4,510 bases of DNA from a virus (taxonomy: Duplodnaviria; Heunggongvirae; Uroviricota; Caudoviricetes): IMG/VR virus record IMGVR_UViG_2724679238_000010. One strand, 5' to 3'. The notes under the pieces are model-generated. The model did no database searches. It was not told where the DNA came from and was given only the letters and a program-made list of their open reading frames with translations. The translations under genes and the position numbers were made by a program. Positions 2,665 through 4,436 of this stretch are shown in pieces (the stretch's first letter is position 1; each line of letters opens with the position of its first letter).

Positions 2665-2846
2665 CCTTTATTTCATACCAACCCTCCCCGCCCCACAGAA
2701 CGCAGGGCAATACTTTGAGTTACCAGGCAGTGGTCAGGGGTTAAGTAGCCAGCCCGAGGCGTAAGAACATGACGGCAGGGTTCAACTTTAACTATGCAGC
2801 AGGTTTTTGTTCCGCTACCCCGGCGTTAAGGGGAAATGAGGTCAGC

Positions 2847-2999
2847 ATGGATACTATCGATCTTGGCAACAACGAATCTCTGGTGTGCGGCGTGTTCCCA
2901 AACCAAGACGGTACGTTCACCGCAATGACGTATACCAAAAGCAAAACGCTTAAAACCGAATCTGGCGCGCGTCGCTGGTTAGCCAGAAACACTGACTGA
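2847..2999 (+). CDS. small prophage protein, about 50 aa (YdaF/YdfA-like small protein family suspected); alternative start at 2769
   Basis: ATG at 2847 with GAGG (2837..2840) 6 nt upstream. Protein MDTIDLGNNESLVCGVFPNQDGTFTAMTYTKSKTLKTESGARRWLARNTD. Size and position next to the repressor match the small ydaF/ydfA-type genes of Rac/Qin-like prophages. Family assignment is from memory and is tentative. Confidence 0.5.
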   Translation: MDTIDLGNNESLVCGVFPNQDGTFTAMTYTKSKTLKTESGARRWLARNTD

Positions 3000-3376
3000 T
3001 GAGGCTGACGATGGAATTTAAAGATTTACCGTCTGATGTACAGAAAACAGCAGCTCATACATTGCATTCTGTGCTGCGAGAAATCGGGAAAGATATTGCA
3101 AGCGAGCCAGCAAAAGATCTGGCCCGGAAAATCAAGACCGCTTTCGTTGAGCTTTATAATGTTGGCACTGACTCTGAAACTGTCGAGACCAAGACCGTAA
3201 GTTCACCAATATTCTCACTTGAGCCAGGCGTATTATCAGGTGAAATATGCACCGAGATTTCCAGCGAACTGCTTCCGGTAATACGAGAAACAATTTGCCG
3301 TCGCGGTTTGGATGGAAGTTACGATCATGACGTCCTGCAAGTTCTCAGGACAATGGTGACTTCACTGGGGATTTGA
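2999..3376 (+). CDS. hypothetical prophage early protein (125 aa; alternative start 3011 gives 121 aa)
   Basis: ATG 2999 overlaps the TGA stop of the upstream gene by 1 nt (TGATG), suggesting translational coupling. ATG 3011 has its own GAGG SD (3001..3004) 6 nt upstream. No recognisable domain by eye. Confidence 0.55.
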   Translation: MRLTMEFKDLPSDVQKTAAHTLHSVLREIGKDIASEPAKDLARKIKTAFVELYNVGTDSETVETKTVSSPIFSLEPGVLSGEICTEISSELLPVIRETICRRGLDGSYDHDVLQVLRTMVTSLGI

Positions 3377-3545
3377 TCCCTGCGTCCTCTAACCTTTTGA
3401 TATAGCGGTCCTCCAAGAAGCGGTAAATTTTGTCGAAATCATCTTTCCCCTCTGATTTATTCAGAGGATTACAGGACCCGTAAGTAGCGGCATACATTTC
3501 AACCGTTTTATCAAAAATATAAGAGACAAATTCTTCTTTAGTCAT
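3345..3545 (-). CDS. hypothetical small protein, 66 aa, charged and soluble-looking
   Basis: ATG at 3543..3545 (rc) with AAGAAGGA SD (rc of 3553..3560) 7 nt upstream. Protein MTKEEFVSYIFDKTVEMYAATYGSCNPLNKSEGKDDFDKIYRFLEDRYIKRLEDAGIKSPVKSPLS. The track ORF extends to a GTG at 3630..3632, but that start lacks an SD. The 3' end overlaps the convergent gene 2999..3376 by 32 bp. Confidence 0.45.
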   Translation of the reverse strand: MTKEEFVSYIFDKTVEMYAATYGSCNPLNKSEGKDDFDKIYRFLEDRYIKRLEDAGIKSPVKSPLS

Positions 3546-3882
3546 ATAGATTTCCTTCTTGGTTATTCGGGATAAGAAGGATACCACCTCGCCTGACGTG
3601 GTTAAAAGCAGGCACACAACACGAAAGCGCACGGCGAAGTTCGTCTCACTGTACGGTGTCGTTAAATTTAATTCGACCGTGCGCTTCCGGTTGTGGCAAC
3701 CCGCGAAATGGCGCGGCGGTAAGTATGGCGGGGTTATTCCTTCCCCGTTGAGGACACCGGGTTGTCAGGTTGACCATACGCTTAAGTGACAACCCCGCTG
3801 CAACGCCCTATGTTATCAATTTTCTGGTGACGTTTGGCGGTATCAGTTTTACTCCGTGACTGCTCTGCCGCCCTTTTTAAAG

Positions 3883-4030
3883 TGAATTTTGTGATGCGGT
3901 GAATGCGGCTAAGCGCACGCGGAACAGTTAAAACCAAAAACAGTGTTATGGGTGGATTCTCTGTATCCGGCGTTAATTGTTAACTGGTTAACGTCACCTG
4001 GAGGCACCAGGCACCGCATCACAAAATTCA
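3883..4030. repeat. perfect 19-bp inverted repeat pair enclosing 110 bp with GTTAAC dyads
   Basis: 3883..3901 tgaattttgtgatgcggtg is the exact reverse complement of 4012..4030 caccgcatcacaaaattca. The enclosed region holds GTTAAC-TG-GTTAAC (3979..3992) within cgttaa...ttaacg (3971..3993). The right arm ends 5 nt before the SD of the 4048 gene. Confidence 0.7.
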
Positions 4031-4047
4031 TTGTTGAGGACGCGATA

Positions 4048-4236
4048 ATGGAAACGTTATTACCAAACGTTAATACGTCTGAAGGTTGTTTTGAAATTGG
4101 TGTCAGAATCAGTAACTCTGCATTTACTGAAGATGCCATTAACAAGAGAAAACACGAACGGGAGTTATTAAATAAAATATGCATTCTTTCAATGCTGGCA
4201 CGTTTACGCCCGATGCAAAAAGGATGCTGGCAATGA
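4048..4236 (+). CDS. hypothetical small protein, 62 aa
   Basis: ATG 4048 with GAGGA SD (4036..4040) 7 nt upstream. Protein METLLPNVNTSEGCFEIGVRISNSAFTEDAINKRKHERELLNKICILSMLARLRPMQKGCWQ. Its stop TGA (4234..4236) overlaps an in-frame ATG (4233..4235) of the next ORF. The track ORF starts at a GTG (3943) lying inside the inverted-repeat region, which I consider non-coding. Confidence 0.4.
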   Translation: METLLPNVNTSEGCFEIGVRISNSAFTEDAINKRKHERELLNKICILSMLARLRPMQKGCWQ

Positions 4237-4436
4237 ATACAGCAATTGCTCTCACTCTGATAGTTTTTCTTAATACGGGCGAGCCTGTTGACCCGGTTAT
4301 TGACATTTACGGTTCAATGAAAGAATGCACGGCTGCCGCAGCGGAACAGAAAACTCCCGGTAACTGTTATCCGGTCGATAAAGTTATTCATATGGACAAT
4401 AACGAAATCCCGGCAGGACTTAAAACAGCACCGTAA
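4179..4436 (+). CDS. hypothetical small protein with signal-peptide-like or membrane-anchor N-terminus (85 aa; alternative start 4233 gives 67 aa)
   Basis: ORF MHSFNAGTFTPDAKRMLAMNTAIALTLIVFLNTGEPVDPVIDIYGSMKECTAAAAEQKTPGNCYPVDKVIHMDNNEIPAGLKTAP. Basic residues (KR) precede a hydrophobic stretch (AIALTLIVFL), followed by a polar region with two Cys. Start is ambiguous: ATG 4179 has only a distant GGAG; ATG 4233 has AAAAAGG 9 nt upstream and forms an ATGA overlap with the preceding ORF. Confidence 0.45.
   Translation: MHSFNAGTFTPDAKRMLAMNTAIALTLIVFLNTGEPVDPVIDIYGSMKECTAAAAEQKTPGNCYPVDKVIHMDNNEIPAGLKTAP

Follow-up and report, generated by a model that had tools for sequence, protein, structure and literature searches.

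The closest described counterpart of the locus considered here is the dicBF operon of the cryptic Qin prophage of E. coli K-12, where a DicA-repressed promoter lies upstream of ydfA and a single transcript is processed to give the small RNA DicF (PMC10448788). On the map of Qin a repressor gene and operators are followed by ydfA, one or more further small genes, DicF, dicB and ydfD, the small gene next after ydfA being ydfB (ydfA-ydfB-ydfC are b1571–b1573). A second relative is found in another cryptic K-12 prophage, Rac, where a gene of the DUF1391 family (ydaF) likewise stands among the first genes downstream of a repressor gene, with ydaG before it and with the convergent gene sieB after it. 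In phage lambda the first genes of the PL operon are N (and ral), leftward transcription of which begins when the repressor comes off OL.

The DNA analysed here, referred to as the window, is a stretch of 4,510 nucleotides from a virus of the class Caudoviricetes (IMG/VR record IMGVR_UViG_2724679238_000010), and it covers the immunity region of a lambdoid prophage. Its plus strand carries the repressor gene (phrog_5736), after which come, in order, gene 1 (ydfA; 2847–2999), gene 2 (3011–3376, on the start codon argued for below), DicF (3822–3873; Rfam RF00039, 76.7 bits against a gathering score of 48, E 2.5e-16), the cell-division inhibitor gene dicB (4048–4236; Pfam DicB, E 1.6e-36) and a ydfD-like gene ending at 4436 (Pfam DUF1482, E 3.7e-16); on the minus strand are DnaC-like, O-like initiator, YdaT/CII-like and YdaS/Cro-like genes. 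With ydfA first and with DicF and dicB/ydfD following on the same strand, this is the arrangement of a Qin-type dicBF early-left operon.

Operator-like dyads of the form TACCyAyrGGTA are present in two places, with four copies between the divergent repressor and cro genes (2094–2170) and a further two just 3′ of the repressor gene at 2627–2663, where a pair of 12–14-bp dyads (TACCCATAGGTATT and AATACCTATGGGTA), containing a perfect 14-nt inverted repeat (I5), forms an OL-like second operator pair. Overlapping these last dyads is a weak candidate for a leftward promoter, with a −35 element TTTACT (2639–2644) and a −10 element TATCCT (2662–2667); these hexamers, which give 8 matches out of 12, were picked by eye and score below the threshold of the promoter scan, so that the promoter itself is a putative one. 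It is the gene order of the immunity region, together with the flanking operators, that places the two small genes first in the early-left operon, and the early-left position given to them by an earlier note on this DNA is thus borne out; tightly spaced, they are its promoter-proximal genes and come just downstream of the repressor gene and the second operator pair. Taken as a whole, the reading that the pair opens an early-left (PL-type, “dicBp”-type) operon of a Qin/mEp460-like lambdoid prophage, and that gene 2 starts at the ATG at 3011, can be held with good confidence. In a lysogen, repressor bound to the operator pair at 2627–2663 would be expected to hold this operon silent, and derepression would be expected to give a single transcript containing ydfA, gene 2, DicF and dicB, for which there is the precedent of K-12 (PMC10448788).

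Comparison with Qin shows both how close the relationship is and where it breaks down. The two ydfA products have 88% protein identity, the DNA from just before dicF to dicB (from about 3630 in the window) is nearly identical, and in both cases a second gene follows almost directly after the ydfA stop, at a distance of 1 nt in K-12 and 11 nt here. However, the repressor/cro module of the window is unlike that of Qin, having no DicA or DicC, and where the window has gene 2 and a convergent 66-aa gene, Qin has ydfB and ydfC, to which they show no similarity. The idea that ydfB and ydfC might be frameshift fragments of gene 2 was considered and rejected, the DNA and protein sequences between the conserved flanks being unrelated; it follows from the lack of similarity, found in an alignment with K-12, BL21 and ETEC4090, that gene 2 is an alternative cassette rather than an intact form of ydfB plus ydfC. 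In Rac the order is reversed (ydaG, then ydaF), no member of the gene 2 family is present, and although the last small early gene has its 3′ end overlapped by a convergent one just as in the window, that convergent gene encodes the membrane protein SieB (Pfam E 1.5e-31), which is unrelated to the 66-aa protein.

Gene 1 presents few difficulties. The 50-codon frame runs from the ATG at 2847 to the TGA at 2997–2999 on the plus strand, preceded at a distance of 5 nt by a Shine-Dalgarno sequence GAGG (2838–2841), from which ydfA would be translated, and RefSeq annotates it at the same length of 50 aa in ETEC4090 and BL21. The suggestion in the earlier note that a small protein of the ydaF/ydfA type might be present proved right for this gene, a profile search giving a match of residues 2–48 to positions 1–47 of the 48 in Pfam PF07151 (DUF1391) at E 1.9e-28 (98.3 bits, against a cut-off of 27.3), to which can be added a match to phrog_751 at E 2e-35. 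In an alignment of 29 members of the family, including YdfA and YdaF of K-12, the invariant residues G15, V16, F17, F24, T25, T30, S32, K36, A41, R43, W44 and L45 are all kept in gene 1. Codons that differ from those of Rac ydaF do so synonymously in 14 cases and non-synonymously in 4, and of the 20 base changes 16 fall in third positions; on this sequence comparison gene 1 is under strong purifying selection. The AlphaFold2 model (pLDDT 80.7) predicts a three-stranded β-sheet followed by a C-terminal helix in which the invariant R43-W44-L45 is located, and a fold search with this model returned no match with E below 0.8. A longer, 76-aa form of YdfA starting from an in-frame ATG at 2769 was also considered, and was rejected both because the extension is missing or different in many loci that have the same leader and because the Pfam match begins at residue 2 of the 50-aa form.

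For gene 2 it is the start codon that needs most discussion. The earlier note described a 50-aa open reading frame at 2847–2999 and a 125-aa frame at 2999–3376 having one base in common (TGATG), with an additional in-frame ATG preceded by a Shine-Dalgarno sequence at 3011, and as facts of sequence all of these are correct: the ATG at 2999–3001, overlapping the gene 1 stop within TGATG (2997–3001), does open a frame of 125 codons closed by the TGA at 3374–3376, and use of this ATG would add the residues MRLT to the front of gene 2. However, the evidence from homologues points to the second ATG. RefSeq entry WP_001320327.1, corresponding to gene 2, is 121 aa long; PGAP/RefSeq annotation (ETEC4090, BL21) and the record for phage mEp460_ev081 alike leave 11 nt between the ydfA stop and the start of the gene; phrog_33007 matches gene 2 over residues 1–121 of its own 121 (E 4.5e-82), and four other PHROGs (phrog_9419, 1363, 2151 and 6937) match residues 1 to about 52 of gene 2 starting from their own position 1. 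When 1.8 billion representatives were searched exhaustively, most matches aligned residue 1 to residue 1, and among 25 aligned diverse homologues 20 begin at the M of MEF, in the context MEF(K)(D/E)LP. Where gene callers have extended the protein upstream of MEF, the extensions are unrelated to one another, being MRLT in E. coli but MKTGMIRAITLEDGEV in Enterobacter.

Individual loci make the same point. In locus L148 a gene 2 protein with 92% identity is encoded downstream of a ydfB-like gene, with no in-frame ATG ahead of its start; in L162 the sequence reads ATG AGG TGA AGC ATG, with an in-frame stop between the two ATGs; and in L004, L007, L008 and L011 such upstream ATGs as there are lie out of frame. 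Homologues that do not share this particular junction either lack the equivalent of the ATG at 2999 or have it out of frame or with a stop after it, and all the divergent homologues listed have GAGG or AGGAG shortly ahead of the M(E/K)F codon. In the window the corresponding sequence is the GAGG at 3001–3004, which starts 2 nt after the gene 1 stop and ends 6 nt before the ATG at 3011, and translation of gene 2 would be expected to begin at that ATG by way of this site. Judged by sequence, the most likely start is therefore ATG 3011, giving a protein of 121 aa with the N-terminal peptide MEFKDLPSDVQK, as against (M)RLTMEFK for a start at 2999.

The case for the first ATG nevertheless deserves to be stated. 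If the TGATG were functional, ribosomes terminating at the ydfA UGA would restart at the AUG at 2999, and the main product would be the 125-aa protein, or the two isoforms would be made in comparable amounts. The overlap is present and in frame, some gene callers do give the 125-aa form (P0001), and the overlap, as T(G/A)ATG, is kept in all of the 124 junction instances among the fetched loci; this last figure says little about use of the ATG at 2999, however, because the instances are copies of one conserved junction. Similarly, the nine bases between the two ATGs show five distinct substitutions, four of which are synonymous in the MRLT frame, but this comparison is uninformative since five substitutions are too few for such a test and the Shine-Dalgarno sequence constrains the very same bases. 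There is no Shine-Dalgarno sequence upstream of the ATG at 2999, as against a well-placed GAGG for the ATG at 3011; the MEF N-terminus is family-wide; and the upstream ATG belongs to a recurring context, ATGAGG, that precedes both ydfA and gene 2, with its ATG lying out of frame in the case of ydfA. The TGATG overlap is thus probably a by-product of the ribosome-binding context, and with a 92%-identical orthologue that has no upstream ATG and another homologue that has a stop between the two, a functional TGATG seems distinctly unlikely. The earlier note had left the choice between two isoforms and a mis-called start; of these it is the mis-called start that is favoured, with the true start at 3011, while a 125-aa isoform, differing by four residues, is possible as a minor product. 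Homologues starting at 3011, which that note had itself set against a 125-aa reading, are essentially what was found; as to gene 2 being unrelated to the gene upstream, which was mentioned in the same breath, this holds in so far as the two are unrelated in sequence and each occurs alone, but not in so far as they are usually neighbours at a distance of 11 nt in the fetched loci of E. coli type.

These conclusions also bear on how the two genes may be coupled. The overlap was originally put forward as a coupling device, and in that role it finds no support, since homologues, profiles and two annotation pipelines all place the start 12 nt further downstream. With gene 2 starting at 3011, any coupling would come instead from the 11-nt spacer, in which the Shine-Dalgarno sequence abuts the ydfA stop, and as far as can be judged from sequence this geometry still favours coupling. 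Ribosomes ending translation of ydfA would be set free on the gene 2 ribosome-binding site, so that coupling would operate through proximity rather than through the TGATG overlap. A further contribution might come from RNA structure, since the last codons of ydfA can pair with the gene 2 Shine-Dalgarno sequence and spacer to form a hairpin (2970–3010) that would mask the ribosome-binding site, and that ribosomes translating the end of ydfA may unfold. This contribution is only a suggestion, because the hairpin does better than shuffled sequences (z −2.4) for a 61-nt piece alone, longer pieces doing no better than shuffles.

Turning to the gene 2 protein itself, the available evidence (the phrog_33007 match, alignment, an AlphaFold2 model, analysis of selection by segment, and the RefSeq entry) divides it into three parts. 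The head (residues 1–52; 3011–3166, plus strand) is conserved and is predicted to form a two-helix hairpin (pLDDT about 75); it carries from residue 1 the motif M(E/K)FxDLPxxxQxxAxxxL...AFxELY that defines the family, and is under purifying selection, 12 of 19 changes falling in third positions. The linker (residues 53–76; 3167–3238) is predicted to be disordered, evolves fast and shows no codon-position bias, looking neutral in this respect. The C-domain (residues 77–121; 3239–3373) is specific to this variant and has two helices predicted at lower confidence; it shows few second-position changes and is conserved in a full-length homologue of 41% identity (L004). The possibility that everything beyond the head might be free of selection was thus rejected, the tail being divisible into a neutral-looking linker and a constrained C-domain. 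The model as a whole has a pLDDT of 60.5, and its sole fold match is to a head-only protein of 52 aa from phi191 (TM-score 0.86); no significant fold match from which a function might be read was obtained for either the gene 2 or the DUF1391 model, PDB sequence searches gave no match, and gene 2 has no Pfam, NCBIfam or PADLOC match.

What does emerge from the homologues, which are found in Escherichia, Salmonella, Enterobacter, Serratia and Hafnia, is that the family is a modular one. Among 86 distinct family proteins, single-linkage clustering found the head joined to 23 classes of tail, with total lengths ranging from 85 to 212 aa; 14 of the 86 have no tail or a short one and include proteins of 50–51 aa, stand-alone heads being 50–55 aa in length. 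A given head allele may be found with different tails and a given tail with different heads, the joint in each case lying just past AF(V/I)ELY. On sequence, then, gene 2 belongs to a family in which a conserved head of some 50 aa is combined with at least 20 unrelated tails. Its head is probably a common docking or scaffold module and the variable tail the specific part, although this can be held with low confidence only. As a description at the level of the family, this modularity of head and tail is a useful addition.

Beyond the 3′ end of gene 2, and convergent with it, lies a gene of 66 aa (3345–3545, minus strand; RefSeq WP_000159335.1, phrog_34441 at E 2e-49), which shares its 3′ end with the final 32 nt of gene 2, an overlap that is almost invariant. 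This gene travels with the gene 2 C-domain as a single cassette, which extends from about 3011 to 3600 (the limits being taken from the identity profile against L149). It is found at the same offset in L148, L149 and L151 with 89–97% amino acid identity, and co-occurs with the C-domain in loci of both the E. coli and the Enterobacter type. Nor is such an arrangement restricted to this variant, since small ORFs of their own, likewise convergent, adjoin or overlap the 3′ end in at least six further tail classes. The selection signal on the 66-aa ORF is equivocal.

These observations are suggestive of gene 2 tails and convergent genes being cognate pairs, and a specific form of this would be that the 66-aa protein is an exclusion or abortive-infection factor expressed in the lysogen, and the gene 2 tail the early neutraliser, by analogy with sieB/esc. 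The recurrence of convergent small ORFs behind at least six mutually unrelated tail classes speaks for such a scheme, as does the overlap of ydaF by the convergent sieB in the same position in Rac, and so too does the co-occurrence, in two locus types and with a near-invariant overlap, of the C-domain with the 66-aa gene. However, physical linkage alone will make adjacent sequences co-vary; for the 66-aa ORF neither clear purifying selection nor a defence-family match nor a strong promoter was seen, and the 129-aa variant of gene 2 has no convincing convergent partner. Pairing in this particular form is accordingly a doubtful proposition, and the same tentative status attaches to the broader idea of a combinatorial kit of early proteins, with gene 2 among its alleles, in which a head recombined after AF(V/I)ELY is joined to any of 20 or more unrelated tails, each the neutraliser or partner of its own convergent gene. 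Were this latter idea true, the convergent genes would be expected to be expressed in the lysogen, and the interval from ydfA to dicF would constitute a polymorphic exclusion/escape locus comparable to sieB/esc. The combination of a head, a swappable tail and a recurrent convergent partner makes the ydfA-to-dicF interval a reasonable site in which to seek new functions in competition between phages.

A different kind of partnership would be one between YdfA and gene 2 themselves, forming an obligate two-protein module (a toxin–antitoxin pair, or a regulator and its partner) that would explain the fixed spacing of 11 nt. In the fetched IMG/VR loci a gene of the gene 2 family is found at exactly +11 in 118 instances where YdfA ends in ...RNTD or ...RNSD, and ydfA lies 11 nt upstream in 53 of 80 loci of the gene 2 family, though these figures come from a sample dominated by near-identical copies of E. 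coli prophages, with some contigs fetched twice; YdfA copies with other tails have other sequences downstream. Set against the regular spacing is the fact that each gene also occurs without the other. Members of the gene 2 family without ydfA come first after the repressor gene in L004, L007, L008, L011 and L158–L163, and a member follows a ydfB-like gene in L148, while ydfA in Qin is accompanied by ydfB, and the DUF1391 gene of Rac by sieB. DUF1391 also appears as a lone small gene in phages of Pantoea, Salicola and Serratia and in Bas97, away from any position of PL type; at the sensitivity used, translated searches of phage and plasmid collections found matches only at small stand-alone genes, the three phage copies examined being 52–57 aa long. 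Since, in addition, there is no match to any PADLOC or toxin–antitoxin family, an obligate module is improbable, and the pairing is best read, from the sequences compared, as a common recombination joint, comprising the end of ydfA, the spacer and the first codons of the head, which is frequent without being obligatory.

As to what the two proteins do, comparison with lambda N is of limited help: the map position is alike, but there is no likeness of sequence, composition or domain, and neither an arginine-rich motif nor a recognisable nut site. The earlier view that neither protein resembles an N-type antiterminator holds up, there being no arginine in the first 22 residues of either and no Pfam antiterminator match. 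The leader before ydfA (2664–2846) shows no boxA or boxB of lambda type when inspected by eye, and as a 179-nt piece it folds no better than shuffled sequences (z +1.05), while a short conserved motif is found in the leader before the first gene, whichever gene that may be. A functional analogue of N, acting by antitermination to carry transcription past the DicF terminator to dicB, the exonuclease gene, xis and int, would fit the position of the pair, the leader motif and the absence of any N-like gene from the annotation of the complete phage mEp460_ev081, in which the early-left operon extends past dicF as far as xis and int, but with no arginine-rich N-terminus, a gene 2 head that is a neutral helical hairpin also found alone, an unremarkable leader, and DUF1391 present in unrelated phages outside PL-type operons, it is very improbable that either gene fills this role. 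The occurrence of DUF1391 in unrelated phages indeed argues against any role tied to the transcription of this operon in particular. With low confidence, and judging by position, size, modularity and neighbours rather than by homology, YdfA and gene 2 may be regarded as small early effectors acting on targets in the host or in rival phages and not as regulators of transcription; the PADLOC and Pfam models for defence and toxin–antitoxin systems found no match in gene 1, gene 2 or the 66-aa protein.

Both genes are genuine and figure already in the annotation of reference genomes, and the arrangement found in the window is an ordinary variant; the one concrete correction to its earlier description is that the second gene should be called from the ATG at 3011 (121 aa). 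RefSeq has the identical gene order annotated in ETEC4090 and BL21(DE3). In BL21(DE3)/REL606 (WP_000379591.1 and WP_001320327.1) the same pair is found with the same 11-nt junction and the 66-aa gene at 98–99% DNA identity, and phage mEp460_ev081 (VUF53597.1 and VUF53575.1) has the same pair and cassette at 98.5% identity, with dicB, ydfD, the exonuclease gene, xis and int downstream; in each of these cases the sole difference from the window is in the neighbouring immunity module. No study of the copies in BL21(DE3)/REL606 or mEp460_ev081 was found in the literature searched, and BL21(DE3) and phage mEp460 offer ready laboratory systems for work on the ydfA-to-dicF interval. The prophage class to which these belong is a very common one in E. 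coli, so that ydfA and gene 2 would be among the first proteins made when such a prophage is derepressed. Of 5426 complete E. coli genomes, about 4400 have matches to the ydfA and pre-dicF flanks, and 400, BL21(DE3) among them, carry the gene 2 variant described here.

The last five or six residues of YdfA, the 50-aa DUF1391 protein encoded first in the early-left operon, occur in discrete versions (window 2982-2999; alignment A3, comprising 29 members of the family), and these versions track what lies downstream. In the fetched loci, copies ending in ...RNTD or ...RNSD are followed at +11 by a member of the gene-2 family, those in ...ERNSGE by ydfB at +1 (K-12 prophage Qin), and those in ...EKHTVS by a convergent sieB (Rac). 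Since the C-terminal version thus matches the downstream gene, the recombination joint falls inside the end of ydfA itself. On a larger scale, none of the complete E. coli genomes matches the whole window from end to end, the best of them covering 87% of it, in no more than three pieces, at 92.7% identity; for this reason the combination of immunity module and early-left cassette is a mosaic that is without an exact counterpart in the complete E. coli collection.

Upstream of the joint, the Shine-Dalgarno sequence of the first early-left gene is closely preceded by a short motif in the leader, GTTCCGC-(2-4 nt)-CCC(C)GGCG(A/T)TAAGGG(G) (window 2810-2836). It is also found in the comparison loci L003 (at about 1972-1998), L004, L007, L008, L148 and L158-L163, whichever kind of gene comes first (ydfA, one like ydfB, or a member of the gene-2 family); among the loci compared, L011 lacks it. 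The motif can form a hairpin of 4-5 bp with an 8-nt loop, and its arrangement is reminiscent of boxA-spacer-boxB, although the sequence is not. A long 5' leader (2672-2846), containing CAATAC-TTT-GAGTTA at 2709-2723, is present in 49 of the 137 fetched loci having a ydfA-like start, whereas the leaders of K-12 and BL21 are shorter and different; the predicted fold of this leader as a whole is no more stable than that of shuffled sequence (z +1.05).

Within the gene-2 family, one homologue found in the representative search (P0037, 204 aa) has two tandem copies of the 50-residue head, the first spanning residues 1 to about 52 and the second residues 117-168. Gene 2 itself overlaps by 32 nt a convergent 66-aa gene (3345-3545, minus strand), and conservation within the cassette is highest in the stretch where the two ORFs meet (3261-3440), with 95-100% identity to the Enterobacter-type locus L149 as against about 87% in the flanks, which suggests dual coding or a constraint at the RNA level. 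Convergent minus-strand ORFs likewise accompany the 212-aa tail class (L014/L018, 3304-3525) and the 112-aa tail class (L021, 2992-3198); because these two share the start MEDKM and diverge afterwards, the convergent genes, too, may combine a common 5' end with a variable body.

Between DicF and dicB, Rfam STnc100 matches 3871-4080 over its full model length (E 3.9e-06), at 39.1 bits, short of the gathering score of 47.

The repressor (2165-2584, 139 aa from the ATG at 2165) gave no helix-turn-helix match in a Pfam search; its likeness to DicA is limited to the C-terminal 50 residues (NCBIfam NF007257, E 2e-5, far under the cut-off). The match to phrog_5736 extends along the entire protein.
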